NCBI GenBank assembly: GCA_963747695.1
Contig: CAVVFV010000010.1
Span: forward strand, 389,618-453,617
Reading direction: 5' to 3'
Length of the DNA: 64,000 nt
Source of the DNA: Candidatus Falkowbacteria bacterium
Lineage (GTDB): Bacteria > Patescibacteriota > Patescibacteriia > Patescibacteriales > WJLG01
Shown here: piece by piece, positions 4,725 to 61,942 of the stretch
Layout of the letters: every line of letters starts with the position of its first letter
Numbering within the stretch: position 1 is the first letter of the stretch
Notes under the pieces: generated by a model
Seen by the model: the letters and a program-made list of their open reading frames with translations, nothing else
Databases searched by the model: none
What the model was told of the DNA's origin: nothing
Program-made: the position numbers and the translations under genes

Positions 4725-5690
4725 TTAAATAGTTGGGTTGGTCAGGACGGCATTTAAATTAAAGCTTGGTATATTAAGCTGCTCTGTAAAGGCAGTTTTT
4801 TTGTTTTGGCCGAAATAGGCTTCGGCGGGAGTAAGGTAGTTGAGCGACTGATGCGGACGGTAATTGTTGTAGCTGTCAAAAAATTTCGTTAAGCCGGCTC
4901 GGCATTCAGCCACCGATTCGTAGTGCTTGATGTAAACATCCTGCTGTTTAACTGTCCGCCACAATCGCTCAATGAAGATATTGTCCAAACAGCGGCCTTT
5001 GCCGTCCATGCTGATTTTGACGCCTTTTTCCAGACTGGCGGCGGTGAATTTCGGACTGGTAAAATGGCTGCCCTGATCAGAGTTGAAAATCTCAGGGATT
5101 GCCAAGGCATAGGCTCGCTCTTGAACTCGCAAGCAAAAATCGATATCTAATGTGTTAGACAATTCCCAGGCAATGACATAGCGCGAATGCCAATCGATGA
5201 TAGCCGTTAAATAGCAGAAGCCGTGTTCTAATCTGATGTAGGTGATATCCGTGCTCCAAACCTGATTCGACCTGGTGATTGATAGTCCGCGGAGCAGATA
5301 CGGATAAATTTTATGCTGTTTGTCCGGCTGGCTCAAATCCCTCTTTTTCTTCGGATATATCGCCGTAATACCCATCTTGATCATTAGCGTCCGGACATGT
5401 TTTTTACCAACCGGAATTTTATGGTCGCGCCTGATAATGGCCGCTATCGTCCTCTTGCCGTAGCTTGGATTTTCCGTATATATTTCATCAATCAGATTCA
5501 TAATGAGCAGATCCCTCTCGCTGACTTCGGTCTGGTAATACAGGCGGGAGCGGGAGATGTCCAGCAATTCAGTCTGGCGGGTCAGAGTGATATCAGGATT
5601 TTCTCGGTCGACCAATTTTAGCCGGTCGATCATCGTCAAAGATTGATAATTTTTTTTTGAGCCAGTCGAGCTCAATGTCTCGCTGGCCAA
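4725..5690 (-). CDS. IS3-family transposase OrfB (DDE integrase core)
   Basis: DDE triad context is visible (WSTDITY, NSDQGSHFTS, DNIFIERLWRTVK). Probably expressed as an OrfAB fusion. Confidence 0.88.
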   Translation of the reverse strand: MASETLSSTGSKKNYQSLTMIDRLKLVDRENPDITLTRQTELLDISRSRLYYQTEVSERDLLIMNLIDEIYTENPSYGKRTIAAIIRRDHKIPVGKKHVRTLMIKMGITAIYPKKKRDLSQPDKQHKIYPYLLRGLSITRSNQVWSTDITYIRLEHGFCYLTAIIDWHSRYVIAWELSNTLDIDFCLRVQERAYALAIPEIFNSDQGSHFTSPKFTAASLEKGVKISMDGKGRCLDNIFIERLWRTVKQQDVYIKHYESVAECRAGLTKFFDSYNNYRPHQSLNYLTPAEAYFGQNKKTAFTEQLNIPSFNLNAVLTNPTI

Positions 5691-7656: not shown

Positions 7657-7722
7657 ACCATTAGTCAGCGATTATTTTTTAATATTTTTCTCGACTAAGC
7701 TCTTGAGTAAACATAGAAAACA

Positions 7723-9385
7723 ATGAATGAAACAGGAAAATTATTTTTAAAACAAGAACCCGTGCCGTTGAAATTCGGCACGAGCGGGATGCGCGGGCTG
7801 GCGACTGATTTAACGGATTTGGAATGTTATCTTAACATTCTGGGCTTTCTCGACTATTTAAAAAGCATCAGTGCGGATCGAGGGCGGCATCAAAGCAGGC
7901 GCGGTAATTTTTTTGGCCGGAGATTTTCGGCCGAGCACGCGGAGGATTATGAAGGCCATCACTAAAGCGATTAAGGATTCCGGGTGCACGATCAAGGATT
8001 GCGGAAATATGCCGTCGCCGTCCGTGGCCTATTGCGGCTTGCGCCAAAATTGCGCCAGCATCATGGTTACCGGCAGCCATATTCCCGAAGATCGCAACGG
8101 CATCAAGCCTAATAAAGCCAATGGGGAAATCTTGAAAGCCGACGAGCCGGTGATGTTGCAACACGTTGCCGAGGCCAGGGAAAAAATTTATGCCACGTTG
8201 GGAATATCCGGTGGCTTATTTGATCAAGCCGGAATGCTCGTCGAAGATGTGGTAATGCCGGAAGTCGATCGTGAACAAACTGAAATGTATATCAAAAGAT
8301 ATACCGAAGTATTTCCGGAGAATTGTCTTCAAGGAAAGAAAATCGTGGTTTACCAGCATTCATCGGTGGGCCGGGATATTGTCACGGAAATATTCAGGCG
8401 GTTGGGAGCGGAAATCGTGGTTGAAGGCCGGACGGATAAATTCGTTTCCGTCGATACGGAAGCTTTGAAAGATGAAGATTTGAAATTAATGAAAGAGTGG
8501 GCGGAAAAGAATAAACCTTTCGCTTTGATCTCATTCGACGGCGACTGCGATCGGCCGTGGCTGTCCAATGAATTGGGTGAATTTTTACCCGGAGACCTGT
8601 TGGGCGGGCTGACCATGCTGCATTTAGGGGCTGATTTCGGGGCTGTCCCGATAACCTGCAATGATGCGGTTGATCAGATTTTGGCCGGTAAAGCCAAATT
8701 GGTTAAGACAAGAATCGGTTCTCCGTTTGTGATCAGAAGCATGATGGACGCGGCCGAACAGGGGTTTAAAAGAATTTCCGGCTGGGAAGTTAACGGCGGG
8801 TTCCTGACTTACACGTGATTTTAAAATGTATGGAAAAAAACTTACGGCTCTACCCACCCGCGACGCCGTTCTGCCGCTGCTTTGCGTCGTGCTTTTGGCC
8901 GATTGAAAAAAATATCACTCTTTCGGCGATAATGAATGGTTTGCCGAAAAGATATACCAATAGTAATAAAATAAGAGAGTTTCCCGGTCGAGATTTCGGA
9001 AAAAATAATCAATAAATATTCTCCGGAAGATAACACGATTGAGAAGATGGAATTCGGCGCTGAAGAAATAATTGTCGTTAGAATAGACGGAAGCGCGGAA
9101 AAGGTGAAAAACGATTCATCTTTTGGGAAGGAATGGCAGGAAAAGAAAAAAACTTTCGAGGAAAAATATTTTATTCCCAATGGCATTGCCAAAATTATTT
9201 CTTTTAATTATGTGGAGGGATTAAGGATTATGACCGAAAATAAAGAAGTGGTTCACCTGCGCGAGTCGAGTAATGCGCCGGAGATGCGCTGTTATGCCGC
9301 CGCGGATTCTAACGCCCGCGCCGTTGAATTGGTTCACATCGTTTTGACCAAGGTAGTCCCTGAGTTAAGAACCGATCTGGGTTAA
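7723..9385 (+). pseudogene. phosphoglucomutase/phosphomannomutase-family gene split over at least five reading-frame segments
   Basis: FGTSGMRG N-terminus, TGSHIPEDRNGIK active-site loop and ALPTRDAVLPLL domain-IV motif all occur in order but in different frames. Frame changes lie near 7860, 8815, 8900 and 8988. Confidence 0.75.
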
Positions 9386-17974: not shown

Positions 17975-18361
17975 CTAATCGACTTTGACGATTTTTTTGA
18001 CTTCATCCAAAAGCAAATCCTTGCCAAACGGTTTTTCCAGCACGCCCTTGACCATATGGGTTTCATTGAATTCTTCCAAAAGTTCGTGCAATTCCGGGGA
18101 GGTGACCGGCAAGGCTGAGATCAATAAGACCGGAATTTTTTTCATCCGATCATCCTCGCTCATCGCCTTGCAAACATCAAGACCGCTCATTCCCGACATC
18201 ATAAAATCGAGGATCAAGAGGTCGTAATCCGGGCTCTGTTCAATTTTCTCCATTCCTTCCCGCCCATTGTAAGCGAAATCGATCTCATCAGTCAACTCCG
18301 TCAAGAAGGCCTTGATAGTTGTGACGACGTTTGATTCATCGTCGATGATTATGATTTTCAT
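17975..18361 (-). CDS. single-domain response regulator (CheY-like receiver, no output domain)
   Basis: MKIIIIDDESN...DLLILDFMMSGMSGLDV...KPF. The ATG at 18361 is preferred over the tracked 18391. Confidence 0.85.
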   Translation of the reverse strand: MKIIIIDDESNVVTTIKAFLTELTDEIDFAYNGREGMEKIEQSPDYDLLILDFMMSGMSGLDVCKAMSEDDRMKKIPVLLISALPVTSPELHELLEEFNETHMVKGVLEKPFGKDLLLDEVKKIVKVD

Positions 18362-18459
18362 AAGGTTATAATTATAATTATTTCTCGGCAAAAATTTTAT
18401 TTTTTAAACTAGGCGCGAAGAGCGATTACTTTAAACCGCTGTCGGGAAAAAGGCGAAGA

Positions 18460-23526: not shown

Positions 23527-24777
23527 TTATTTTTTTATTAAGACGACTATTTCCCGCCAGACTTTTTGACCGGGGCGGCCGTAGACGATGGTTCCCCGCC
23601 GGGTGGTGTGAAGAATTTCGCGCAAGTTTTCCGGCAGCGGATTGATTACTTGCCAACCGTCCAGATTGGGATTGAGAAAATGAAAATCCGGACGAGACCC
23701 CTCAGTGCGGACCGGAAAGATCATCACGACCCGGCCGTCCGGTTTCAAGATCTTTTTAAATTCCCGCAAAGCCGATGAATATAACTTTTCCAATTTGATC
23801 TTGGTTTTCACCGGATCAGGATTGCCTCTTTGCGGCCCGAGATATGGTTCAGTAACGACGGCATTAATGGAATTAAATTTTATTTTTTGCGAAATTTCGG
23901 TCGCGGAAATATTAAATAATTGGAAATTGGAAATTGGAAATTGGAAATTTGTTTTTAGCCACGCAATATTGTTCTTCGTATCAGAAATCGCTTTTTCGGA
24001 AATGTCGGAACCGATAATATTTTTTATTCCCATCAAGGCTGCTTCCATTAAGATCGTACCCGATCCGCAAAAGGGATCAAGCAGGCTTGGTAGGAACGCA
24101 ATATTTTGCGTTCTGTCCGGCGGGAACGCAAGGCATTGCGTTCCTACGGCGGGAATTTTTCTCGAAAGGTTTAACATGATCTGCGCCAGTTTTGGTGGGA
24201 TCATCCCGGAGGCATCGTCGCGCTCGGGCCGACCGAAATCGCGGAAGGATAATTCTTTGAACGGCTGCACCGCTTCGGTATAGCCTAAATGCATCGTGCC
24301 GCCATCCTCGATCAAGACGATCTCAATCCCCTGCCGGGTCAAGCCGTTCTGCTCGACCACGACGCTCGACAAGGTTTTTTCTTTGCTGGTCACCAGGCGG
24401 CAGCTTACTCCTTTTTGTTTGAGGATTTTTTTGATCGTCAGACCGATGGGAAAAACCGGCAATTTGCTCGCGCCGTAATGGGAAAGGCCGAAGCAGTATT
24501 TATTGGCCTCGGCGCGCTCGGCCAGATCGTCGTCGATTATCTTAAGAATCGCGGCCTTAATCCGATCATTATTATGGCGGTCGACATCCTCGGTAATAAC
24601 GCCGATCTTGATCGTTCCGCCCAGCCGTTTGATCAGTGCCGGAGAGTCCGTGGCCGGATTTTCCAACAGCAAAATATTGCCCGCTACCATGCGAGTTTCC
24701 GCCTCCGGTCGTAAGGCTGAGATTATTTCGGCGGCCGAAAGAGCCGGGTTAGTGCCTAGAACAAAAAAATATTTCAT
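23527..24777 (-). CDS. Trm11/UPF0020-like SAM-dependent (tRNA guanine-N2?) methyltransferase carrying two in-frame repeat insertions
   Basis: 416 aa with a THUMP-like N-terminal half, motif I LLDPFCGSGTILMEAAL and motif IV VVTEPYLG. Repeat-derived peptides are [21 protein letters not shown] and FQFPISNFQLFNI. Confidence 0.75.
   Translation of the reverse strand: MKYFFVLGTNPALSAAEIISALRPEAETRMVAGNILLLENPATDSPALIKRLGGTIKIGVITEDVDRHNNDRIKAAILKIIDDDLAERAEANKYCFGLSHYGASKLPVFPIGLTIKKILKQKGVSCRLVTSKEKTLSSVVVEQNGLTRQGIEIVLIEDGGTMHLGYTEAVQPFKELSFRDFGRPERDDASGMIPPKLAQIMLNLSRKIPAVGTQCLAFPPDRTQNIAFLPSLLDPFCGSGTILMEAALMGIKNIIGSDISEKAISDTKNNIAWLKTNFQFPISNFQLFNISATEISQKIKFNSINAVVTEPYLGPQRGNPDPVKTKIKLEKLYSSALREFKKILKPDGRVVMIFPVRTEGSRPDFHFLNPNLDGWQVINPLPENLREILHTTRRGTIVYGRPGQKVWREIVVLIKK
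23920..23950. repeat. tandem heptamer tract (TTGGAAA x4 plus partial) inside the methyltransferase CDS
   Basis: ttggaaattggaaattggaaattggaaattt, translated on the minus strand as ...FQFPISNFQLF... Confidence 0.85.
24090..24147. repeat. GTAGGAACGCAA double-hairpin palindrome, copy inside the methyltransferase CDS
   Basis: GTAGGAACGCAATATTTTGCGTTC-tgtccggcgg-GAACGCAAGGCATTGCGTTCCTAC. The left arm is identical to the 27214-27237 copy. Confidence 0.85.
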
Positions 24778-34282: not shown

Positions 34283-34486
34283 ATATTAAATAATCTATTC
34301 TTTTTGACGCTAGTAGGCGTCAATTCACAAAAAAAGCATCCCGCCTCGGCGGGATCCTAAAGTCGTCCTGATTTCATACTCAGGGCGCACGTACAGTATA
34401 TAGTCTTGAGAAATCAAGATTCTCTATATTTGGTAATCGGACTTCGGTTCGAGTTTACCCTTCGGCAACGAAGTAAAATTTTAAAA

Positions 34487-36474
<1,988 letters not shown>

Positions 36475-39300: not shown

Positions 39301-39328
39301 GGGTTACGTGGTATGAGTTATGTGTTAC
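39301..39328. repeat. degenerate heptamer array (GGGTTAC-type x4) just upstream of the clpP promoter -35
   Basis: GGGTTAC GTGGTAT GAGTTAT GTGTTAC. Confidence 0.65.
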
Positions 39329-40397: not shown

Positions 40398-40417
40398 CAA
40401 TTTTATTCAAATAAAAA

Positions 40418-40445
40418 ACGTCTGGCAAGAACCAGGCGTTTTTTA
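40418..40445 (+). terminator. intrinsic terminator after trxA
   Basis: ACGTCTGG-caagaa-CCAGGCGT followed by TTTTTT. Confidence 0.75.
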
Positions 40446-40500
40446 ATGTAAAATGCAAATCTCAAAATGTAAAATAATTTTGTATTTTGAGATTTTAATT
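40445..40500. repeat. AAATGTA/AAATGCA heptamer-periodic palindrome (trxA|ROK kinase 3' ends)
   Basis: AATGTAAAATGCAAATCTCAAAATGTAAAATAATTTTGTATTTTGAGATTTTAATT. Contains an 11-bp perfect stem AATCTCAAAAT/ATTTTGAGATT. Confidence 0.7.
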
Positions 40501-42460: not shown

Positions 42461-42889
42461 TCAGCTGTCACAGATGAATTGAGAGGTTGCGCCGATTAAG
42501 CAGCCGGCGACAAAACTGGTAATGGCATAAGCCGCTAAGACGATGGCCAAGCCGATAATGGCGGAAACGATCTGTCCCTTGGACTTGGTGATCTGTTCTT
42601 CGTCGCCCATGCTGGTCATATACTTAAAACCGGCAATGATGATCAGCACGATAAAAATTGTTCCTAAAAGACCCAGCACCGCGACGATGATGTTGGCGAC
42701 GATGATCCGGATGTCGGTCGGCGCGCCGCTTTGGCCGAAGGCGTGAGAAATAGCGCCGGTGCCGTTTTCAAACCCTTGCTGGCTGTTGATGTCCACCGGG
42801 CTGGCGGCGAGTGCCGCCGGCATCAAAGCTGCTGCCGATAAATTAAGCAAGAAGAGCGGCAATACCAGATAAAAAATGATTTTCTTCAT
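42461..42889 (-). CDS. small membrane protein resembling TrbC/VirB2-type (T4SS) pilins
   Basis: 142 aa from the ATG at 42889. Signal peptide ending ALAASP, then two long hydrophobic helices separated by ...KYMTSMGDEEQITKSKGQ... The tracked start (42931) runs into the heptamer array. Confidence 0.45.
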   Translation of the reverse strand: MKKIIFYLVLPLFLLNLSAAALMPAALAASPVDINSQQGFENGTGAISHAFGQSGAPTDIRIIVANIIVAVLGLLGTIFIVLIIIAGFKYMTSMGDEEQITKSKGQIVSAIIGLAIVLAAYAITSFVAGCLIGATSQFICDS

Positions 42890-42890
42890 A

Positions 42891-42925
42891 AACATGGAAC
42901 ATAGAACATGGAACATAGAACAGGT
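42891..42925. repeat. tandem heptamer array (AACATGG/AACATAG x5) abutting the start of the VirB2-like gene
   Basis: aacatggaacatagaacatggaacatagaacaggt, beginning 2 nt from the ATG at 42889. Confidence 0.8.
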
Positions 42926-43116: not shown

Positions 43117-43145
43117 TATGCTCTATGTTCTTATGCTCTATGATA
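43117..43145. repeat. inverted-orientation partner array (TATGCTC/TATGTTC) abutting the flippase-like gene start
   Basis: tatgctctatgttcttatgctctatgata, then ATG at 43145. It is the reverse complement word family of 42891-42925. Confidence 0.7.
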
Positions 43146-51196: not shown

Positions 51197-51327
51197 AAAA
51201 TCCGAAGCACGAAATCATAAATCCGAAACAAATTCAAAAGTTTAAAATTAAAAATTCAAAACTTTTGAGTTTTTGTTATTTGAATTTTGAACTTGTTTCG
51301 GATTTATTGCTTAGGATTTCGGATTTT
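51197..51327. repeat. 130-bp imperfect palindrome with AAATCCG heptamer-periodic arms (pilin-like gene | PilX-like gene spacer)
   Basis: AAAATCCGAAGCACGAAATCATAAATCCGAAACAAATTCAAAA...TTTTGAACTTGTTTCGGATTTATTGCTTAGGATTTCGGATTTT. Confidence 0.8.
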
Positions 51328-52120: not shown

Positions 52121-53920
52121 TCATTGCGGATTCAAGGTTACCTCGTATTTCTGCCAAGGCGATGAAATATTGACTGCGTCATCGCTGGTTTGAAAACCGG
52201 CTTTGGAAATGTCGATCATGTAATCGCCGGGAGTTAAACCATCGAACAATACCTGTCCGGAAGGCACGCATTGCGAGGAAAAAGTGACGATTACTTCGCC
52301 GACGTCGGGCGTAAAGGTCGAGCTGGCGGTGGACAGATAAATTTTGTAGCGGAAATAGCGGTTGCCATTATTAATTTCACTGATATTGGTGTCGGTGGCC
52401 GTGTAATATGTGGAAGCGGTGCCGTCCGGCCCTTTAAAATCCCAAGTCAACTTGTCATTATTGGAGGCAAACTGCAGCCGGACGCTCGAAGTTCCGGCGC
52501 TCTCGGGCTGATCAGTCGGAGAGAATTCCAGCTCATAAAAAAAGCTGGCCGAGCCGGCATCGAAGGTAGAAGAAGTCAGATCCCCGGCTGCGACAAACAA
52601 GCCGGCGTCGTTTTTTAATTTTATTTCTCCGGTCGGATGGGCCGTTTCAATATTGCCGTCTGAGCTTTCGTAGGCAGTTTGATCGATCAAATTTTCCTGG
52701 CCAGAACCGCCCATCCAATCAGATTGGCGCAAAAATCCCCGGCCGGTCATCAATTGTTGGGTCGAAGTTCCCTGGGTCAATTCCACGGTGGCGCCGGCCA
52801 GCGCCAGGGTCGTACCGCCCTGGATCACACTGACCAACAGGCTGTCGGGATTTTTGGGAACAGCGATGATCTTGACGTCTTGGATACTGCCGGGAGCCAA
52901 GGAGAGCGGAATCGGAGAGATCGAGCCCGCCAGATCGCGGGTGGTATCGGTAAAAGTGAGGGTATAAGTGTCCGCTTCAAGATCGTTGAGGACTTTCGAT
53001 CCGGACGAGTCAGTATTGAAGGTACTTTGATATTTCAAAACATCGGGTGTGCCGATCAATTTGCTGCCTCGTAGAGAGAAATTGATCCCGGGTACCGGAG
53101 CACAAGTTTCAGTAACGCTTTCAACATCAAGCTCGGAAGTCTGGTCGATGACAAAACTGGTTTGGGTAACTTGCTGGACCGCGACGGTGGCGTCCGGCAT
53201 GACGGGATTGGGATTAGTTGAAGAGCCTACCGGGTATGTCCGGTCCTGCGAATATCCCGGTTTGGAAATTTTGATCGAGTAAGCGTTTACGCCCGGCGGC
53301 ACATCGACGATTTCGAGCATGCCTTTGTTGTCGGTGACGTCGTTGACCACGGTCGGCGGTACGGTCTGGTCGTTCTCAATGTGAGCGTTAGCTTGCGGCA
53401 CCGGCTGACCGCTGGCGTCAATAACTTGGATAAAAAGCGCGCCGTTGGTGGTGGAATTTTCCAAATTTTTCGGAGCGATAAATTCCGTAAAAGTCTGCAC
53501 CGGGAAACGGGAATTGCCGGGTACGGAGATTTTCACCTCCATCTGCTTATAGTCGGCCGGCGAAGTATCTTTCGGAGTTCCGCTCAAGGTTCCGTCAAAC
53601 GGATCGTCGATGTTGCGGATCGTCGTTTCCACCAGAAAATTAAAATTATCGCGGGTGATATTTTGCAGTTGCGCTATTTTTCCCGCCGGTATGCCGCCGG
53701 CGATGCCGACATCGGAGTACGGCATATTGTGGGCGATTTCGAATTGTTCGTTGGCTAAAGAGGCAGCGGTGACCAGCAGCCGCGAAGTTTCGACCAGCTT
53801 AGTGGCGCCGCTAAACGCGCCGTAAATGCCGGCGGCGATCACGGAAAAAACGGCAATACCGACCAGAGCTTCGATCAGGGTGAAACCGGCGGAATTAAAT
53901 TTCGGTTTATTTATTTTCAT
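52121..53920 (-). CDS. large pilin-like protein (prepilin N-terminus + carboxypeptidase-regulatory-like beta-sandwich repeats)
   Basis: 599 aa from the ATG at 53920 with ...NSAG|FTLIEALVGIAVFSVIAAG. The tracked start (53995) reads through the heptamer array. Confidence 0.8.
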   Translation of the reverse strand: MKINKPKFNSAGFTLIEALVGIAVFSVIAAGIYGAFSGATKLVETSRLLVTAASLANEQFEIAHNMPYSDVGIAGGIPAGKIAQLQNITRDNFNFLVETTIRNIDDPFDGTLSGTPKDTSPADYKQMEVKISVPGNSRFPVQTFTEFIAPKNLENSTTNGALFIQVIDASGQPVPQANAHIENDQTVPPTVVNDVTDNKGMLEIVDVPPGVNAYSIKISKPGYSQDRTYPVGSSTNPNPVMPDATVAVQQVTQTSFVIDQTSELDVESVTETCAPVPGINFSLRGSKLIGTPDVLKYQSTFNTDSSGSKVLNDLEADTYTLTFTDTTRDLAGSISPIPLSLAPGSIQDVKIIAVPKNPDSLLVSVIQGGTTLALAGATVELTQGTSTQQLMTGRGFLRQSDWMGGSGQENLIDQTAYESSDGNIETAHPTGEIKLKNDAGLFVAAGDLTSSTFDAGSASFFYELEFSPTDQPESAGTSSVRLQFASNNDKLTWDFKGPDGTASTYYTATDTNISEINNGNRYFRYKIYLSTASSTFTPDVGEVIVTFSSQCVPSGQVLFDGLTPGDYMIDISKAGFQTSDDAVNISSPWQKYEVTLNPQ

Positions 53921-53930
53921 AACGCACATC

Positions 53931-53993
53931 ACGTAACACGTAACACGTAACACGTAACACGTAACACGTAACACGTAACACGTAACACGTAAC
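53931..53993. repeat. perfect tandem heptamer array (ACGTAAC x9; GTGTTAC on the coding strand) 10 nt upstream of the large pilin-like gene start
   Basis: 63 bp of uninterrupted 7-bp periodicity. Confidence 0.9.
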
Positions 53994-54074
53994 AATAAAC
54001 TCTGCTCGATAAATTAAAAAAACACCTTAAATTTAAAAAAAGTCAATTATTCGGAAAGATATCGAATTAAGGTC

Positions 54075-54108
54075 TTGTTACGCGCTATGTGATAGGTGTT
54101 GCGTGAGG
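54075..54108. repeat. degenerate inverted partner of the 53931-53993 array, just after the pilC stop
   Basis: cttgttacgcgctatgtgataggtgttgcgtgag carries GTTAC/GTGAT-type words in the opposite orientation. Confidence 0.5.
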
Positions 54109-55254
54109 TTAGACTGTCGAGGTAAGATCGTACATCGGCATGATGATGGCGATGGCGATCGCACCGACGCCGACGCCGAGCAAGAGGATGAGAACCGGTT
54201 CAATGATCGAAGGAAGATTTTGCATGATCTGGTCGACTTCGCCCTCATAGAATTCCGCCAGATCGGACAAAATATTGCTCACCTCGCCGGTTTGTTCGCC
54301 GACCGTGATCATCTGCGTGACCATCGGCGGAAAAAAATTCGGATAATTCTTGATGATCTCGTTGATCTGTCCGCCTTTTTTTATTTGTTCGCTGATTTCC
54401 ATGATCACCCGGCGGTAATGCAAGTTGGAGACGACGTTGGCAGTGATGCGGAAAGCGTTGACGATCATCACATCGGTTTTTAAAAGTGAACCGGCGGTCC
54501 GGGAAAAGCGGGCCAGATTGACTTTTTTGACGATTGGCCCGAAGATCGGTAGCCGGAGAATCATCCCCTGATAAATATATTGGCCTTTTTCCGAGTGGAG
54601 AAAAGTCCAAACAGCTGAAATCAAGACGAGAGCGCCGACCAAAGATAATAGCCAATTATTGGCCAGGAAGTTGCTAGTGCCGATCAGGATACGGGTGGAA
54701 AGCGGCAACGGAACATTGCTGTCGGTAAAAACCGAAGTTATTTTGGGAATGACGAAAACCATCATAAAGATTCCGATGGCGACCATGGCGATGACGACGA
54801 TGGTCGGGTAGATCAGGGCGCCCTTGATCCGCGAATTCAATTCGTATTGTTTTTTGGTTTGCAAATAAAGCTGTTTGAGCACGTCTTCCAATTTTCCGGA
54901 AATTTCTCCCGAACCGACCATATTAATGAAAAGTTCGTTAAAGACTCGGGGGTATAATTTCAGGCTGTCGCTCAGACTGGAGCCTTGTTCCAGCTTCAGG
55001 GCGACTTGTTTGAGGATGCGGGAAAAATTCTTGCTTTCGGTTTGTTCGGCCAAAGTGCGGAAAGAAGCCAGCACCGGTATGCCGGACTTGATCATTACCG
55101 AAAGATTCTGGATGAAAACCAGTTTTTCGCGGATGCTGACGCCCAAGATGCTATACCAAAGATCCTCCAGCTGCTGGGAGAATGATTTTTTTTCTTCGGC
55201 GCTTGGTCCCAAATTTTCCGGTTTGATTTTTTTGTCGGGCTTGATAGTAGGCAT
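54109..55254 (-). CDS. pilC: type IV pilus inner-membrane platform protein PilC (GspF family)
   Basis: 381 aa with two T2SSF repeats and three TM segments. Confidence 0.88.
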   Translation of the reverse strand: MPTIKPDKKIKPENLGPSAEEKKSFSQQLEDLWYSILGVSIREKLVFIQNLSVMIKSGIPVLASFRTLAEQTESKNFSRILKQVALKLEQGSSLSDSLKLYPRVFNELFINMVGSGEISGKLEDVLKQLYLQTKKQYELNSRIKGALIYPTIVVIAMVAIGIFMMVFVIPKITSVFTDSNVPLPLSTRILIGTSNFLANNWLLSLVGALVLISAVWTFLHSEKGQYIYQGMILRLPIFGPIVKKVNLARFSRTAGSLLKTDVMIVNAFRITANVVSNLHYRRVIMEISEQIKKGGQINEIIKNYPNFFPPMVTQMITVGEQTGEVSNILSDLAEFYEGEVDQIMQNLPSIIEPVLILLLGVGVGAIAIAIIMPMYDLTSTV

Positions 55255-55260
55255 CGAAAT

Positions 55261-55350
55261 TAAGTTAAAAGAAAAAACTAATAAGTAATAAGTAAAAATA
55301 AAAAAATAGTTAAAGCAACTTCCAATTTTTTACTTTTTATTTTTAACTTA
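55261..55350. repeat. AT-rich imperfect palindrome with AATAAGT/TTACTTT words (pilB stop | pilC start spacer)
   Basis: TAAGTTAAAAGAAAAAACTAATAAGTAATAAGTAAAAATAAAAAAA...TTTTTTACTTTTTATTTTTAACTTA. Confidence 0.65.
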
Positions 55351-57084
55351 TTCTTGTGTTACTCTCATCACTTCTTCGAGATTGGTCAGGCCGCTGACCG
55401 CTTTGATGAAGCCGTCTTCCACCAGGCTAAGCATGCCCTGTTTTTCCGCTTGTTTCCGCAAGGCGGCGGTGTCGACCGTGTTGGTGATGATCTCGGCCAT
55501 TTCCGGAGTCATTTCCAAAGTTTCGTAAACGCCGATCCGACCTTTGTAGCCGGAGTTATTGCAGCGATTGCAACCGGTGCCGCGATAGAAAGTGATCGAT
55601 TCCAGGCTGTCTTTGGATTCGATGGTTTTTCCGCGTTCGAGCCGGGCCAGGATATCGGTGATGTCCAGTTGCTTTTCAATATCTTCGACGGCTTTTTTGG
55701 AAAGGTGATACGGCTGCTTGCAGTATGGGCAGACTTTTCTGACCAGACGCTGGGCGATGATCAGATTGGTCGTCGAAGCGATCAGAAAGGAAGGGATCCC
55801 CATCTGCGCCAGGCGGGGTAAAGTGGTGACGGCGTCGTTAGTGTGCAGAGTGGATAAGAGCAAGTGGCCGGTCATCGCGGCGTTCACTGAAATTTTGGCG
55901 GTTTCTTCATCGCGAATCTCGCCTACCATAATAATGTTGGGATCCTGGCGCAACAGCGAACGCAGCCCGGCTTCAAAACCGAAACCGATCTTGGGGTTGA
56001 TCTGCGATTGATTGATGTGCGGAATGCGGTATTCGATCGGATCTTCGATGGTGGCGATATTGACTTTGGGAGTATTCAAGACGCTTAAAATAGTATAGAG
56101 CGTGGTGGTCTTTCCCGAACCGGTCGGCCCGGTAACGATGATCATCCCGTGCGGTTTTAGGATATTCTTTTTGACGATCTCCAGCGAGCTGGATAAAAAA
56201 CCGAGATTTTCCAGACTGAGCGCTTGGGCCTTTTCATCCAATAATCTGATGACGACTTTTTCTCCGTCAAAAGTAGGAATGATCGAGACGCGGCAGGAAA
56301 CGCGGTATTTGTCCGTGTCGATCTTAAAGCGTCCGTCTTGCGGCAAGCGGTGTTCGTCGACTTTCAGATTGGAAAGGATCTTGATTCTGGCGATGATGCC
56401 GGGCTGGACATTCTTGTCTAGCGTCATTACGTTATAAAGGATGCCATCGATGCGATAGCGGACGATCACGTCTTTTTCTTCCGGTTCGATGTGGATGTCG
56501 GAAGCGTCGCGGAACATTCCGTATTCCAAGAGATCGTTGACGATGCGGATGATCGGCAGATTGGCCGCGATTTTTTCCAGCTCTTCCGGCTCGGTGACGT
56601 CGAAGCCGTCCGCTTGCTTTTTCGGTTCGCAGAAATTCTTGATCTCGTTATTGATGGTTTCGCGGTATTGTTTCAGCCCTTCCTTGATGCTTTCCGGCGT
56701 CGTCAGATTGACCTCGATCTCGTAGCCGGTTTTTTTCTTCAAGAAATCAAAAATTTCCAGATCTTCCGGGTCGAGCACGGCGATCTTCAGCACTTTGCCG
56801 GTCAGATTGAAAGCGATCAGGTCATGGGCGACCGCGATCGGTTCCGGAACGTTGAGCAAGGCTTCTTTCTGGATGGTCTGCTCTTTCAGATTGACGAACG
56901 GAACCTTGAAGTAGATGGCCGTTTCTTTGGCCAGATCTTCCGGGGCGATGATCTTCTTTTCGGCCAAAATATCTTCGATCCGTTTGTCGTTTTCCTTGGC
57001 TTCGCGGGACAATTTATCGAATTCTTCGGCGGTGATGATCCCGGCGCAGGTCAGGATATTCTTTAATTGTTGTTCGTTGAACAT
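55348..57084 (-). CDS. pilB: type IV pilus assembly ATPase PilB (GspE family)
   Basis: 578 aa with Walker A GPTGSGKTTTLY, an Asp box, a His box and tetracysteine CPYC...CNRC. Confidence 0.93.
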   Translation of the reverse strand: MFNEQQLKNILTCAGIITAEEFDKLSREAKENDKRIEDILAEKKIIAPEDLAKETAIYFKVPFVNLKEQTIQKEALLNVPEPIAVAHDLIAFNLTGKVLKIAVLDPEDLEIFDFLKKKTGYEIEVNLTTPESIKEGLKQYRETINNEIKNFCEPKKQADGFDVTEPEELEKIAANLPIIRIVNDLLEYGMFRDASDIHIEPEEKDVIVRYRIDGILYNVMTLDKNVQPGIIARIKILSNLKVDEHRLPQDGRFKIDTDKYRVSCRVSIIPTFDGEKVVIRLLDEKAQALSLENLGFLSSSLEIVKKNILKPHGMIIVTGPTGSGKTTTLYTILSVLNTPKVNIATIEDPIEYRIPHINQSQINPKIGFGFEAGLRSLLRQDPNIIMVGEIRDEETAKISVNAAMTGHLLLSTLHTNDAVTTLPRLAQMGIPSFLIASTTNLIIAQRLVRKVCPYCKQPYHLSKKAVEDIEKQLDITDILARLERGKTIESKDSLESITFYRGTGCNRCNNSGYKGRIGVYETLEMTPEMAEIITNTVDTAALRKQAEKQGMLSLVEDGFIKAVSGLTNLEEVMRVTQE

Positions 57085-57128
57085 AAAATTGAGGCGGCAT
57101 AGGTTGCCCCTTATATTATTCTTACTTT

Positions 57129-57137
57129 ATTATAACA
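57129..57137 (-). promoter_or_regulatory. extended -10 promoter candidate for pilB operon
   Basis: The minus strand reads TGTTATAAT (TGnTATAAT), about 45 nt upstream of the pilB ATG. Confidence 0.45.
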
Positions 57138-57166
57138 TATTTCGCGCCGTAAGTAATATTCATGGC

Positions 57167-57236
57167 GTAACTCATAACTCATAACTCATAACTCATAACT
57201 CATAACTCATAACTCATAACTCATAACTCATAACAA
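57167..57236. repeat. tandem heptamer array (ATAACTC x ~10; GAGTTAT toward pilB) upstream of the pilB promoter
   Basis: gtaactc followed by eight perfect ataactc units and ataacaa. Confidence 0.9.
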
Positions 57237-57303
57237 CTAACCTTACTGGTTATATTAAAATTTCAAAAACGATAATTATTTTGAAAAAAGTTTGATATTC
57301 ACC

Positions 57304-57324
57304 GTGTTACGGGTTACGGGTTAC
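57304..57324. repeat. tandem heptamer array (GTGTTAC GGGTTAC GGGTTAC) upstream of the LTD-protein gene promoter
   Basis: Same G(N)GTTA(C/T) word as the pilB-side array but in the opposite orientation, so each array points toward its own gene. Confidence 0.8.
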
Positions 57325-57400
57325 GAGATAAATTCATGTGTTGCGTCTCGCATTGCTTGCTTGATGACAAAAATTTTTATTCTTGCTAAAATAGTTTGGT

Positions 57401-60160
57401 ATGAAATATTTAGGAGGGAAAATATTTTTTATCTTGGGCTTTTTGTTGTGCTCAGGATTTTTTTATTGTCAAAATTGCCAGGCGGCCGCGGCCGGAGCGG
57501 TGGTGATCAACGAGATCGCCTGGATGGGAACGGTGAACAGCCCTAACGATGAATGGCTGGAATTGGCAAACCGCGGGGATGAAGATGTAGTTATTGAAGG
57601 CTGGACGTTAACTTTTGGGACCAGTACGCCGAAAAAAATTGCCAAATGCCAGATCGTCCAGCCTTGTACCGTTCCGGCGGGAGGATTTTTTCTGCTGGAG
57701 CGAACCGATGATACCAGCGCACCGCCGCCGGCCGATTATATTTATACCAGCGCTTTGAATGACAACGGCGAAGTCTTGGAATTAAAAGACGATTCGGGAG
57801 CGCTGATCGATCGCCTTGATGCTTCGGCAAAATGGCCGGCCGGAAATAAGGATTCTCGGCTGACTATGGAACGCGCGGCTGACGATTCCTGGTGCTCAAG
57901 CCAGTCAGCCGGCGGCACGCCCAAAGCGGCCAATGATTGTGCCGACCAGAACTCAGCGGCGAATTTGTCGGCCAATCCGGCAACGCCCGCGGAAACCGGC
58001 GGCGGCTCGGCGCCGGGTTATCGTTACGGTGATGTTTTAATCAATGAATTCGAAAGCGATCCGCCGGCGGGCGAAAACGAATGGGTGGAATTATATAATC
58101 CCGGCGGCGGAGCTATCCCGTTGACTGGCTGGACGATTGCCGACGGCTCGGGCAAAGAAACGCCGCTCGCCGGCGGTTTCGATGAAAATAATTATTTTTT
58201 CTTCACGGCGGAAAAATTCAAAGGCGCTTTGAATAATGACGGCGATGGGATTTATTTGTATAACGGCGCGCACGCCTTGATTGATGAAGTCGCTTATGGA
58301 AAATTCGGCGACCAGCCGGATAATAACGCGCCGGCGCCGGGGAAAGGCCAGTCAACGGCTTTAAAGATCGACGGTAAAAAAGCCTTGTTTGATAAAGACA
58401 GCTACGCCGTGACCATTACTCCGACCGAAGGCGGAACAAATATCATCACCGCTCCGGCCAGCCAGACTGATGATAGCTCGACTTCCAGCGCTGCCATCCC
58501 GGGCGATATCTCGATCACGGAAATTTTTCCCAATCCGGCCGGTTCGGATCGCAGCGGCGAATTTATCGAACTTTATAATAATTCGGATGCGTTGGTCGAT
58601 CTGACCGGTTATCGGATCGATATTGTCGGCGGGCGCAGTTTTGAATTCGGCAAATTTTTCAATCCAACCCATTCCTTGCCGGCGGGAGGATATTTTGCGC
58701 TATACCGCTCCGCAAGCAATCTGGTTTTGGATAATAACGGCGGCACGATAAAGTTGTACGCGCCGGGGAAAACCCGGGCGGCGCAAAGCTTACAATATGA
58801 TCAAGCCGAGGAAGGTTACAGCTATTGCGACACGGCTCAGCTTGATTTGAGAAACGCCAATAGCGCGACGAAAAAATTTTTAAATAATTCTTTATTGCTT
58901 TCCCGCTGGGTTTGGAGCGCTACTCCCACGCCGGGAGCGGCCAATCAGATCAAGACTCCCAATAATCCGCCGCGGCCGAGTTTTTCCGCGCCGGCTAAGA
59001 TCATTGCCGGCGTCGCGGTTGATTTCGACGCTTCGGATAGTTTCGATGAAGACGGCGATCCGCTTTCTTTTGCCTGGGATTTCGGCGATGGCGGCCGGCA
59101 GATCATCGAAGATCCTGTTCACACTTTTCTCACCCCGGGAAATTATCAGATCAAATTGGCCGTGAGTGACGGCGAGGATTCGGCGACTGTGGCTAAAATT
59201 ATCAAAGTCGGCGGAATTTCACCGGCGAGTTTTGCCGCCGCCGCGGGCGCCGCGGCGGTCGGTTCCGGATCAGCGATAAATTCCACTCAGGCTAAAATCG
59301 CCGTCAACAGTCCGCCGCCGGCTTTGCCGAAAAATTCCGGCAAAACGTTGATAGCAAAAGCGGCAAATCCGATCGAGGCTAAAATAAAAGTTGCCGCGCT
59401 CGCGCCAATGCCGGTAAGTTCGGCGGCGATTGACCGGCTAAAGCTGGGCGCGGCGTGGAAAATCACCGGTACGGTTATCGTCTTGCCCGGGAATTTCGGC
59501 ACGCAATATTTTTATGTCAGCGCCGGTACCAGCTCGCCGGCGGTGAAGATCTATAATTACTATCACGATTTTCCGGTGTTGAAGATCGGCGACGTGATTG
59601 AAGCCGCTGGAGTGATTGGCGGATCAGCCACGGATAAATATTTAAAAACCAAAACCGCGGCGAACGTCAAAATTTTAAGCCAGAAGGATCCGCCCGCTCC
59701 GGAGCAGATCACTGCCGCGGGATTTAAGGAAGAAAATTTGGGAAAATTCGTTCAGACTGAAGGCGAAATTGAAAGCAAAAACGGCCAGCTGGTCACCTTG
59801 TTCGACGGTTCGGCGGATTTTGCCGTTTATCTTAAGGCCGCCGCCAATGTCTCTGCCGCCGATTTTAAAGTGGGGCAGAAGATTTCCGTCACCGGATTAT
59901 TGACCAAGGTCGCCAATAATTTAGCCGTTATGCCCCGATCTTCGGCTGATCTGGCCTTGTCCGCTTCGACATCTCCTTCGGCTGATGATAATTCCGGATC
60001 AGTGCTCGGTGCCGCCACCGGTTCTTCAGCCTGGACCTTGCCCGCGCCAAAAAATAATTCTCAAGCTCTGATTTATCTTTTGATCGCGGCGGGAGGAGCG
60101 ATTATTGTTTTAGCCGGCTGGATTAGCAAAAAATATTTTTTCAAGAAAAAGGCGGGATAA
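57401..60160 (+). CDS. secreted, C-terminally membrane-anchored protein with three lamin-tail domains, a PKD domain and OB-fold-like repeats
   Basis: 919 aa with a signal peptide. LTD signatures are VVINEIAWMGT..EWLELAN, VLINEFESDP..EWVELYN and ISITEIFPNPAGSDRSGEFIELYN. PKD signature is DASDSFDEDGDPLSFAWDFGDG. A C-terminal TM helix is followed by KKYFFKKK. Confidence 0.75.
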   Translation: MKYLGGKIFFILGFLLCSGFFYCQNCQAAAAGAVVINEIAWMGTVNSPNDEWLELANRGDEDVVIEGWTLTFGTSTPKKIAKCQIVQPCTVPAGGFFLLERTDDTSAPPPADYIYTSALNDNGEVLELKDDSGALIDRLDASAKWPAGNKDSRLTMERAADDSWCSSQSAGGTPKAANDCADQNSAANLSANPATPAETGGGSAPGYRYGDVLINEFESDPPAGENEWVELYNPGGGAIPLTGWTIADGSGKETPLAGGFDENNYFFFTAEKFKGALNNDGDGIYLYNGAHALIDEVAYGKFGDQPDNNAPAPGKGQSTALKIDGKKALFDKDSYAVTITPTEGGTNIITAPASQTDDSSTSSAAIPGDISITEIFPNPAGSDRSGEFIELYNNSDALVDLTGYRIDIVGGRSFEFGKFFNPTHSLPAGGYFALYRSASNLVLDNNGGTIKLYAPGKTRAAQSLQYDQAEEGYSYCDTAQLDLRNANSATKKFLNNSLLLSRWVWSATPTPGAANQIKTPNNPPRPSFSAPAKIIAGVAVDFDASDSFDEDGDPLSFAWDFGDGGRQIIEDPVHTFLTPGNYQIKLAVSDGEDSATVAKIIKVGGISPASFAAAAGAAAVGSGSAINSTQAKIAVNSPPPALPKNSGKTLIAKAANPIEAKIKVAALAPMPVSSAAIDRLKLGAAWKITGTVIVLPGNFGTQYFYVSAGTSSPAVKIYNYYHDFPVLKIGDVIEAAGVIGGSATDKYLKTKTAANVKILSQKDPPAPEQITAAGFKEENLGKFVQTEGEIESKNGQLVTLFDGSADFAVYLKAAANVSAADFKVGQKISVTGLLTKVANNLAVMPRSSADLALSASTSPSADDNSGSVLGAATGSSAWTLPAPKNNSQALIYLLIAAGGAIIVLAGWISKKYFFKKKAG

Positions 60161-60167
60161 TCGGCGG

Positions 60168-60212
60168 GAGATTCTGACCGGGCCAGCGGAGGGATGGTTT
60201 GGTCAGAATTTT
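60168..60212 (+). terminator. hairpin terminator after the LTD gene
   Basis: GATTCTGACC...GGTCAGAATTTT. Confidence 0.5.
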
Positions 60213-60299
60213 CCACCGGGGATTCTGCCGCCGCATAATTTAAGCGGCTTGCAATTTTCGGAAAAAAGTATAAAAATATAGATTATAATCCATTATTTT

Positions 60300-60758
60300 A
60301 TGAAAATGATCGAAGGGGTGGTAATCAAAGAAATCCGGGAGAATACGGATGAGCGCGGCTGGCTGGCCGAGGTTTTTCGCCATGACGAAACGGATTTTCG
60401 GGAAACGATGTGCTACGTCAGCTTGACCAAACCGGGCGTTGTCCGCGGTCCGCATGAGCATGTGCATCAATCGGATTGTTTTGTTTTTCTCGGACCGGGA
60501 GAGTTCGCTCTGCATCTTTGGGACCGTAGAGCCGATTCTCCGACAGCCGGCGAACATTTTACAACGACGGTGGGCGAAAATAATCCGACTTTGGTGATCA
60601 TTCCGCCCGGAGTGGTGCACGGCTATCAATGCGTTTCCAGCGAACCGGCCTGGTGTTTGAATTTTCCTGATAAGTTATACGCCGGCGCGGGGAAAAAAGA
60701 AGCAGTCGACGAAATCCGCTGGGAAAAAGATCCTGGTTCGCCGTATAAGATTAATTAA
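60300..60758 (+). CDS. dTDP-4-dehydrorhamnose 3,5-epimerase-family cupin (RmlC-like, short)
   Basis: 152 aa with ...DERGWLAEVFR...GVVRGPHEH...DRRADSPTAGE...IPPGVVHGYQ. Confidence 0.7.
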   Translation: MKMIEGVVIKEIRENTDERGWLAEVFRHDETDFRETMCYVSLTKPGVVRGPHEHVHQSDCFVFLGPGEFALHLWDRRADSPTAGEHFTTTVGENNPTLVIIPPGVVHGYQCVSSEPAWCLNFPDKLYAGAGKKEAVDEIRWEKDPGSPYKIN

Positions 60759-60855
60759 AAAATGTCCCCTCCTCGGGAGGGGTGCCCGGATCCCGCTTTA
60801 GCGGGAGGAGGGCGGGGAGGGTCTATTCCTGACATTGTAAATTTAAAAATCGCCG

Positions 60856-61719
60856 TTAGGCGATTTTTTTGATGTATTCTTGCAAAGCGTCTTGATAATT
60901 TCGCAAGGGCGGCAGCTTGGTGTTAAGCAGCGTCGAGTTGGCCGGCCGCCGGGCTGGCCGAGGAAATTCCGCGCCGGTAACCGGAATGACTTTAGAGCGA
61001 ACGTCGGCAATCTTAAAAAGTTCCAGGCAAGCTTCGTACCAGGTGGCCGAGCCGGGATTAATGATATGATAAACGCCGAAAGGAATCTGATAGTCAATTA
61101 ATTTTTTGGTCGCTTGCGCCAAGTCCGGCGTATAGGTAAAACAGCTTTTTTCCTCGTCGACCGCCTTCACCTCGCTATTTTTTTTAGCCGCGGAGAGCAT
61201 CAGATCGAAAAAACTCGGTTTGGCCGCCGGGGAGGGGCCCTGCGGCCCAAAGAGTTTGGAAGTCCGGATCAAATAATGCCGCGGTCCGGTTAAACCGGCC
61301 ATCAATTGCCGCTCGCCGGCTAATTTGCTGATTCCGTAATTATTGATTGGGCAGGGCAAAGCGGTCTCATCGTATCCGCCGGCGCTGGTGCCGTCAAAAA
61401 CATAATCAGTGGAGTAATGGACGATGGTCGCGTTGATTTTTTCCGCGGCCTGCACCAGATAGCCGATCGCCTCGGCATTGATTTTTTTGGCCAGCGCAAA
61501 TTCAGCGGCATCAGTTTCGCATTTGTCCACGGCATTGTAGGCGGCGGCGTTGATGACGAGCTGCGGCCGAAGACTGATTATTTTTTTAATCAGATCATCG
61601 CCCTGGGTGATATCAACATCTTCTTTATCCCACCCGACCGTTTCCGAACCGCCCGCCGAAAAGACCGCCGCCAACTGCGCCCCCAAATTTCCCTTAGCTC
61701 CTAAAATTAAAACCTTCAT
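60856..61719 (-). CDS. rmlD: dTDP-4-dehydrorhamnose reductase
   Basis: 287 aa from the ATG at 61719, with MKVLILGAKGNLG and YGISKLAGE (YxxxK). Confidence 0.88.
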   Translation of the reverse strand: MKVLILGAKGNLGAQLAAVFSAGGSETVGWDKEDVDITQGDDLIKKIISLRPQLVINAAAYNAVDKCETDAAEFALAKKINAEAIGYLVQAAEKINATIVHYSTDYVFDGTSAGGYDETALPCPINNYGISKLAGERQLMAGLTGPRHYLIRTSKLFGPQGPSPAAKPSFFDLMLSAAKKNSEVKAVDEEKSCFTYTPDLAQATKKLIDYQIPFGVYHIINPGSATWYEACLELFKIADVRSKVIPVTGAEFPRPARRPANSTLLNTKLPPLRNYQDALQEYIKKIA

Positions 61720-61785
61720 AAAATAGTAACTATTAGTATTGAATAAATTTAGCATAAAGTTCGCGCAATGTTAAATAAATTTTAT

Positions 61786-61813
61786 CCGTAACCCGTAACC
61801 CGTAACTCGTAAC
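61786..61813. repeat. tandem heptamer array (CCGTAAC x3 + TCGTAAC) in the rmlD/ftsK divergent spacer
   Basis: ccgtaacccgtaacccgtaactcgtaac. Confidence 0.8.
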
Positions 61814-61910
61814 GCCTTTAGCAAATCCGCTTTTTTTAATGTTTTTTCTGTGTTATCATTAAGGTAACAAGGGGGATAATTCATATCTCTGATTTTGATT
61901 ATTGAATTTT

Positions 61911-61938
61911 TTACTTATTACTTTTTACTTCTTACTTC
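61911..61938. repeat. tandem heptamer array (TTACTTN x4) ending 4 nt before the ftsK ATG
   Basis: ttacttattactttttacttcttacttc. Confidence 0.75.
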
Positions 61939-61942
61939 TTTT

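Follow-up and report, generated by a model that had tools for sequence, protein, structure and literature searches.

Two opposed arrays of 7-bp repeats occupy the spacer between pilB, the first gene of a type IV pilus cluster, and a divergently transcribed gene for a secreted LTD/PKD-domain protein in the 64,000-nt stretch of DNA analysed here (the window), which derives from a bacterium of the Patescibacteria (candidate phyla radiation, CPR). The question raised by this locus is what such arrays do between two divergent genes. In the initial annotation each array was assigned to its own gene and the pair was proposed to co-ordinate pilus and LTD-protein expression. The question was addressed by comparing the window with 130 non-redundant related loci (1.15 Mb), individual loci being designated by L numbers. 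Relatives of PilB all belonged to the Patescibacteria/CPR, with Falkowbacteria- and Parcubacteria-like neighbours. The comparison points to a single composite element that comes and goes beside the pilB promoter, and which we tentatively regard as an optional module that would tune pilB transcription.

Anatomy of the pilB-LTD spacer

The spacer and the two genes that flank it carry the following features.

55348-57084, minus strand: pilB, encoding the T2SSE/MshEN ATPase, first gene of the type IV pilus cluster
57129-57137, minus strand: extended -10 element of pilB, TGTTATAAT, kept as (TG)TGTTATAATAA in relatives whether or not they have arrays
57167-57236, minus strand: proximal arm, TTGTTAT + (GAGTTAT)x8 + GAGTTAC, ten NNGTTAY heptads reading toward pilB
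57237-57303, no strand assigned: A+T-rich core of 67 bp between the arms, beginning with a degenerate AGGTTAG (57237-57243)
57304-57324, plus strand: distal arm, GTGTTAC GGGTTAC GGGTTAC, inverted relative to the proximal arm and followed by a degenerate GAGATAA
57364-57392, plus strand: LTD-gene promoter, ATGACA-17-(TGC)TAAAAT, with ATGACA at 57364-57369, conserved in L083 and L060
57401-60160, plus strand: gene for the secreted LTD/PKD-domain protein with a signal peptide, divergent from pilB

In register, the proximal arm was read as TTGTTAT (57230-57236), eight GAGTTAT units (57174-57229) and GAGTTAC (57167-57173), in exact agreement with the ten-unit array, eight units of it identical, that had been annotated. 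On the plus strand positions 57168-57234 are a perfect (TAACTCA)x9.6 with a Tandem Repeats Finder (TRF) score of 134, on which direct reading and a scan for perfect runs concur. That the same G-N-GTTA-Y word is used in both arrays in opposite orientation could likewise be read in the sequence. The proximal arm ends 82 nt from the pilB ATG and 32 nt from the TATAAT hexamer. A good -35 hexamer was not found for the pilB promoter; the long array ends about 9 nt before the inferred -35 position, in line with its original placing upstream of the promoter candidate.

Both promoter candidates were borne out by conservation. TGTTATAATAA and the pilB start are invariant across a four-species alignment and TGTTATAATAA is visible in eight relatives, while the LTD promoter is kept as ATGACA/GTGACA-17-TGCTAAAAT in L083 and L060. 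The earlier placing of ATGACA-17-TAAAAT downstream of the short array was correct, but the gap, given as about 30 nt, measures 39 nt from the distal arm (57304-57324) to the LTD -35 hexamer. Since the ATG follows the extended -10 TGCTAAAAT by only 8 nt (8 nt in L083 and 10 nt in L060), the LTD mRNA is probably leaderless. On the pilB side, the minus strand at 57085-57115 holds AAGGGG followed after 6 nt by an ATG at 57099, which opens a short open reading frame (ORF) of about 29 codons that overlaps the pilB start out of frame; this ATG is not conserved in L083 and L060. Rfam at gathering threshold returned no match in the spacer, the sole match in the window being a bacterial 16S rRNA gene at 34481-35893, in which the full model is covered in 1413 nt as compared to 1533 model positions.

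The arrays between pilB and the LTD gene are genuine and non-random. Period-7 tandem repeats are roughly 15-fold over-represented in the window, with 19 TRF rows against 1.2 in 30 block shuffles of local composition. Perfect period-7 runs of at least 2.7 copies occur six times, and none were found for periods 5 and 8-15. The double word GTTAY-NN-GTTAY occupies 23 positions in the window, all of them intergenic, vs 0.78 expected. Two Logan contigs, assembled independently from run ERR11748453, agree with the window without a mismatch at 53970-57197 and 57205-61936 and break off some 30 nt into the long arrays. This confirmed the existence of the arrays, and it confirmed copy number for the short arrays 57304-57324 (L002) and 61786-61813 only. 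Short-read assemblies are broken by the arrays, as the ends of the Logan contigs within them illustrate.

Heptamer arrays in the window, in relatives and in phage contigs

Arrays of NNGTTAY heptamers were found at five intergenic sites of the window, upstream of clpP, the pilin gene, pilB, the LTD gene and rmlD. Those outside the pilB-LTD spacer, together with the pilus genes beside them, are listed below.

39301-39328, plus strand: array upstream of clpP, GGGTTAC GTGGTAT GAGTTAT GTGTTAC, 7 nt before TTGACT-17-TATAAT
52121-53920, minus strand: large pilin-like gene of the type IV pilus cluster
53930-53994, minus strand: array (GTTACGT)x9.3 in the pilC-pilin spacer, ending 9 nt before the pilin ATG (53920)
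54109-55254, minus strand: pilC, of the type IV pilus cluster
61786-61813, minus strand: rmlD array, GCGTTAC GAGTTAC GGGTTAC GGGTTAC, 13 nt before TTAACA-17-(TGC)TAAATT

The minus-strand pilus cluster comprises pilB, pilC, the large pilin-like gene, a second pilin-like gene, pilM, pilN and pilO. Strict NNGTTAY arrays were present in about 17 of the 130 related loci, and period 7 was the commonest class of tandem repeat across these loci (162 rows, against 62 for period 8 and 72 for period 9). We are highly confident that the arrays belong to one NNGTTAY family that is widespread in the Patescibacteria lineage. Further heptamer words, mostly of A+T-rich units, are also present in the window and in relatives.

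Inverted arms were not confined to divergent genes. In the window, a degenerate inverted arm at about 54075-54110 lies in the co-directional pilC-pilin spacer and a TTAC-type inverted arm at 61911-61940 in that of rmlD. Inverted pairs among relatives were found in L084 (two modules), L012, L023 and L146, those of L084, L012 and L023 including co-directional spacers. Relatives without a divergent gene also carry the inverted distal arm, and such an arm stands upstream of the pilB promoter in L022, L028, L111 and L114. Judged on these sequence comparisons, the opposed layout comes with the element and does not reflect a two-gene design, since inverted arms occur in co-directional spacers and in relatives that lack a divergent gene. 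In L209 (PilB 91% identical), (ACATAAC)x4, a 66-nt core and (GTGTTAC)x5.4 stand upstream of TGTTATAAT; the divergent neighbour of pilB is an HD-domain gene, and the LTD gene lies about 2.4 kb off with no array at its start. Because the composite of L209 stays with pilB and not with LTD, (GNGTTAC)x3 most plausibly represents the distal arm of a composite that belongs to pilB, and not an operator of the LTD gene. The proposal that each array serves its own gene and that the pair co-ordinates pilus and LTD-protein expression is not supported, given that the same word also precedes clpP, rmlD and pilin, that inverted arms occur in co-directional spacers, that the L209 composite has an HD-domain neighbour and that L083 and L074 maintain the divergent pair without arrays.

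The core at 57237-57303 had no significant similarity to the other cores of the window, to L084 or to L209 when local alignments were compared with shuffles. L084 holds two arm-core-arm modules of about 140 bp (1710-1870 and 5005-5150) that are 79% identical and lie upstream of pilB and the pilin gene; a duplicated homologous core was clear only in this relative.

Comparison of the spacer among relatives revealed frequent loss or gain of the element. In L083 and L074 (PilB 91% and 88% identical), pilB and LTD are divergent and both core promoters are present across a spacer of about 110 bp without family arrays. The initial annotation had held a regulatory role to be unlikely if close relatives lacked the arrays with no difference in expression, and the sequence part of that statement describes what was found. 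No arrays were found upstream of pilB in L060 (80%), L211 (87%), L085 and L119, and in L084 (82%) eleven degenerate units abut the pilB -10. Two relatives share a PilB identity of 91%, one of them arrayless (L083) and the other with (GTGTTAC)x5.4 (L209). It is concluded with high confidence that the element is dispensable for both core promoters; it also turns over rapidly. With the same high confidence, different internally perfect units at one place between close relatives are taken as a signature of slippage and homogenization.

Copy number also varied at orthologous positions. The pilin array has 9.3 copies here vs (GTTACGT)x12.6 in L060, with the start codon within the final GTTATGA unit, while the pilin start of L209 has a single GTTATGA and no array. 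L096 and L097, which represent near-identical strains sampled in different metagenomes, agree over about 370 nt save for one 7-nt indel in the heptamer array of the pilB leader. This AATTGAA-type array (L096 544-586, L097 1827-1876) is placed downstream of the TGTTATAAT promoter and ahead of the pilB start codon, and the indel is direct evidence of a single-unit change in the clade. Out of 136 flank-matched array pairs in related loci, many of which are one assembly present in two collections, length differed only in L096/L097.

The arrays are oriented consistently with respect to genes. In each of the five window arrays, GTTAY is found on the coding strand of the gene that immediately follows. 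As GC skew is positive on the plus strand throughout the window and three arrays carry their G-rich strand on the minus strand, a replication-strand mutational bias was rejected as the cause, and array orientation follows the gene and not replication. When strict arrays of window and relatives were combined, 14 pointed toward a gene start and 7 toward a gene end, with five of the latter being distal arms of inverted pairs. Measured from the last GTTAY, the -35 follows after 7 nt at clpP, 13 nt at rmlD and about 9 nt at pilB, where the -35 is inferred. Upstream of pilB in L209, L028 and L022 we read gaps of about 4-11 nt, and at a second promoter of L209 one of about 10 nt.

The family word was also encountered outside Patescibacteria. 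A scan of viral contigs for (GTTAYGN)x4 returned 46 stretches, and several contigs of 55-58% G+C with actinophage-like proteins carry from 4 to at least 12 arrays each. The arrays of L183, L176, L164 and L178 (IMG/VR UViG_3300020162_002373, 3300042290_000649, 3300032218_003786) consist of (GTTAYGN)4-8. Arrays in the phage contigs are all on the gene strand and directly follow a terminator-like hairpin and T-run; an inverted RTAACCC arm comes next, and heptamer palindromes occupy nearly every intergenic gap examined. The word and its inverted-arm design hence recur far outside Patescibacteria, which purely neutral slippage could hardly explain and which leaves the idea of a heptad-binding factor in play.

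Several further arrays touch coding sequences. At the pilin gene, neither a promoter nor a Shine-Dalgarno sequence was found between array and ATG, where there is no room for a promoter, and the array may be situated in a 5'-untranslated region (5'-UTR). The (GTTACGT)n array contains no stop codon in any sense frame, and a mechanical ORF call at 52121-53995 (624 aa, TTG start) passes through it. Arrays without sense-strand stop codons thus lead gene callers to extend ORFs through them. Translation of the prepilin probably begins at the ATG at 53920, which yields MKINKPKFNSAG followed by FTLIE. In L044, a Moraniibacteriota relative, a 23S_rRNA_IVP gene (four-helix bundle) is bracketed by inverted heptamer arms at 7704-8182, and a prepilin leader ORF, MLHVTRHTLHDNG followed by FTLIEM, contains the downstream arm, (GTTACAC)x4; a one-unit change there would shift the frame. 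The leader repeats of Neisseria opa genes undergo comparable frame-shifting by unit change.

Other heptamer words were observed as well. A second opposed pair, CATAGAA/CATGGAA x5 facing TATGCTC/TATGTTC x3.6 (42887-42922 and 43117-43142), lies at the 5' ends of divergent genes for a T4SS_pilin-like protein and a polysaccharide-synthesis protein. A+T-rich heptamer runs (AATGTAA..., AAATTCA...) at 40415-40500 and 51230-51290 are followed by their own inverted copies, the former run directly behind a terminator-like hairpin where the thioredoxin and ROK genes converge. A perfect (AATTGGA)x4.6 at 23918-23949 lies inside a class-I methyltransferase ORF (23527-24777, minus strand; Pfam UPF0020 and Methyltransf_31), where it encodes NFQFPISNFQ. 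As a one-unit change would shift the frame, this methyltransferase is a candidate for phase variation.

Possible function of the composite and competing explanations

Constant orientation, together with a position 7-13 nt upstream of the -35 at clpP, rmlD and pilB, suggests function. The reading that we favour, though only tentatively, is that this slippage-prone heptanucleotide element is an optional upstream promoter module that tunes, and does not switch, pilB transcription. The two arrays would be the proximal and distal arms of one composite, in the order arm, A+T-rich core and inverted arm, attached at the upstream edge of the pilB core promoter. Such arrays would grow, shrink and homogenize via slipped-strand mispairing, which, if it acts at the pilB locus itself, would explain eight identical units here, another perfect unit in L209 and none in L083. 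The accessory module would most probably offer a run of 7-bp sites to a putative DNA-binding factor. Alternatively, it might be a variable spacer that alters what stands upstream of RNA polymerase. Unit number would be expected to raise or lower pilB transcription gradually and not to turn it on or off.

A number of observations weigh against this. As L083 and L211 are without the element, pilB can dispense with it. Three samples of the L084 strain (L216, L217 and L218), with 0-1 differences over 7.9 kb, have identical arrays, though these are degenerate. The last unit stands 29-37 nt from the -10, with no fixed phase, which disfavours a precisely placed activator site; by our own reading there is no constant remainder modulo 7, and fixed helical phasing of array and -10 was rejected. 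The pilin array ends 9 nt before its ATG without a promoter in between and the LTD-side arm lies 39 nt from its -35, and as both deviate the position rule is not universal. Pfam scans of 40 of the ORFs in the window detected no helix-turn-helix (HTH) or ribbon-helix-helix (RHH) protein. The only regulator-like match was a stand-alone receiver domain at 17975-18391, and on this set of ORFs a regulator encoded nearby was rejected. Arrays could also abut promoters merely because selection halts their expansion into functional DNA. Curved or UP-like DNA, which had been suggested as a mode of action, is unlikely on sequence, as A-tracts are absent, only 43% of GGGTTAC is A+T and repeats spaced by 7 bp do not keep step with the helix. 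The start of the array at about -45 does fit the position of an UP element (-40 to -60), but A/T-tracts phased at about 10.5 bp are missing. The other suggested modes of action, a copy-number rheostat or phased binding sites, may apply.

A wider proposal, in which NNGTTAY heptads are the recognition code of a putative global heptad-binding protein, omega-like with one dimer per 7 bp and shared by Patescibacteria and some phages, is in our estimate unlikely. If it holds, promoters would gain, lose and resize platforms for this protein by slippage, with stochastic, heritable tuning of type IV pili and other functions by very few transcription factors in these reduced-genome episymbionts as a result. 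Patescibacteria are obligate episymbionts whose attachment to the host depends on type IV pili, and they have very few regulators. A promoter-seated, clade-wide and slippage-prone repeat family would be a cheap and evolvable layer of control.

The tuning module competes foremost with the view that the arrays are functionless microsatellites, products of heptanucleotide slippage that are tolerated between genes and halted by selection at functional edges. Arrays are absent from equally close relatives with intact promoters, unit variant and copy number change freely among relatives, and the phase relative to the -10 is not fixed, all of which a neutral origin would accommodate. The many unrelated A+T-rich period-7 arrays in window and relatives fit such an origin as well, as does the general bias toward heptamer slippage described for many bacteria (PMC4679880). 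Random seeds would yield unrelated units, however, and the GTTAY core recurs at five window loci, at about 17 related loci with PilB only 50-65% identical and in unrelated phage contigs. Orientation, moreover, tracks the downstream gene in five of five window arrays against replication skew, and arrays of the same unit are kept at orthologous sites of the pilin gene in species whose PilB is 80% identical. Neutrality is for these reasons considered somewhat unlikely, and should it apply, the arrays would still provide a useful description of a lineage-typical microsatellite.

The composite could also be the remnant of a cassette resembling a miniature inverted-repeat transposable element (MITE) or an intervening sequence, with arms that were terminal inverted repeats later expanded by slippage. 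The inverted arms are 75% complementary over 28 nt and a direct ATTCATG stands on both outer flanks, but a 7-nt flank match has a chance probability of a few percent and no empty site carries a single ATTCATG. The two 79% identical modules of L084 are what a mobile cassette would leave, whereas in the 64 kb of this genome that were examined the cores show no significant similarity among themselves or with those of L084 and L209; a mobile element with a conserved core was rejected, as core alignments against shuffles were non-significant and only the L084 copies are homologous. Patchy distribution among close relatives agrees with mobility, and arms bracket one 23S_rRNA_IVP gene in L044 and two in viral contig L174, although at 2 of 5 such loci with flanking arrays the cases are too few for a conclusion. 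With no transposase present and with arms of unequal length (3 vs 10 units) and different unit variants, this origin is decidedly unlikely.

A true contingency locus, at which unit number switches the pilus operon and the LTD surface protein or jointly sets their expression, is very doubtful. The arrays lie upstream of the conserved core promoters, outside the -35/-10 spacer and both coding regions; neither core promoter can be switched off by a change in array length. Housekeeping genes, clpP and rmlD, are preceded by the same arrays, and in L209 the LTD-side arm stays with pilB, not LTD. No length polymorphism was seen at the pilB locus, whose long array the Logan contigs enter but do not cross. 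It is nevertheless the case that long, perfect and slippable repeats adjoin the surface-structure genes pilB and pilin, as well as the LTD gene. A one-unit indel was seen in the pilB leader array of a relative, the L044 array within a prepilin leader would shift the frame on a one-unit change, and precedents are at hand in hmw1A (PMC12721329) and ctxAB.

The idea that the arms of the pilB-LTD spacer form a cruciform in the DNA, or a stem in RNA that serves termination or RNase III processing, can be given almost no credence: inverted arms, phage arrays that are palindromes directly after terminators, the RNase III-cleaved hairpin of the hmw heptamer repeat (PMC12721329) and the pilC-pilin spacer RNA, which forms a long stem of its degenerate distal arm and the first proximal units (z = -2.7, 1 of 200 shuffles), speak for it, but the pilB-LTD arms have 3 vs 10 units with a mismatch in every unit, both conserved promoters fire outward and leave the element probably untranscribed, Rfam finds nothing at the spacer, and the single-strand DNA fold is non-significant (z = -1.6, 12 of 200 shuffles folding as well), on which ground cruciform and hairpin were rejected.

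Comparison with known heptamer systems

Heptanucleotides are the most abundant long simple sequence repeats (SSRs) in many bacterial genomes, and polymerase slippage was proposed as their source (Mrazek 2007, as relayed in PMC4679880). Heptamer repeats of Nostoc near promoters and start codons affect the access of regulators (bioRxiv 10.1101/2022.06.06.494920). The long SSRs of 5-11 nt and the cyanobacterial short tandemly repeated repetitive (STRR) sequences are likewise dominated by heptamers, mostly intergenic, close to starts or promoters and suspected of a regulatory role. They stem from free-living bacteria with large genomes, whereas the arrays described here belong to a host with a reduced genome and have a 5-bp core and an inverted-arm architecture. 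Within the library searched, no paper on such repeats in Patescibacteria came up.

The closest likeness in wording is to the TAACTGA direct repeats of marine Beggiatoaceae, Cyanobacteria and some Bacteroidetes (MacGregor 2015, PMC4679880). TAACTGA differs by one base from the plus-strand TAACTCA found here, and its reverse complement CAGTTAT fits NNGTTAY. Both are intergenic, use a genome-wide word, precede housekeeping and other genes and form long arrays in some species. The Beggiatoaceae repeats, however, lie on the sense strand within a few nt of the start codon, overlap the ribosome-binding site and usually have 2-6 copies (PMC4679880). In the present arrays the sense strand carries GTTAY, most stand upstream of a -35, an inverted partner arm is present and the hosts are Patescibacteria. 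The unit is TAACTCA (elsewhere ACGTAAC and GTAACCC), and at pilB the sense GAGTTAT lies 82 nt from the ATG. The pilin array alone is near an ATG (9 nt), in an orientation opposite to that of TAACTGA repeats.

Graded expression by unit number is documented for hmw1A and hmw2A of Haemophilus influenzae, in which (ATCTTTC)n varies within populations (PMC12721329). There too a 7-bp SSR of some ten or more units lies upstream of a surface-adhesion gene and pairs with a complementary arm. The hmw repeat is, however, transcribed and forms a 5'-UTR hairpin cleaved by RNase III, while the array at pilB is upstream of the conserved -10 and its fold is non-significant. TTTTGAT heptads at ctxAB of Vibrio cholerae are reported to attract regulators, and promoter activity there correlates with a heptad number that is not the same in all strains (bioRxiv 10.1101/2021.05.14.444153). 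Contiguous heptads directly upstream of a core promoter are common to both systems. The ctxAB system differs in its word, in having known binding proteins and in forming neither an inverted partner arm nor a genome-wide family.

The best structural precedent is offered by the parS sites of plasmid pSM19035, whose heptads are bound by the RHH protein omega (ParB) and must number at least 4 in a contiguous run for full activity (PMC9499535). Gapless 7-bp runs, both direct and inverted, are shared with pilB, where ten contiguous units are joined by three inverted ones 67 bp away, and the plasmid sites are a model for the binding of one protein dimer per 7 bp. The omega/ParB heptad consensus is WATCACW. 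The plasmid system differs in its heptad, in being plasmid-borne and in having its cognate gene adjacent; here the word is NNGTTAY, the 40 window ORFs scanned include no small RHH or HTH gene, and the repeats are perfect in a manner typical of recent slippage. With a slippage-prone repeat family seated on promoters across the clade, repeat-based tuning, which is known mainly from host-adapted pathogens, would extend to this large uncultured radiation.

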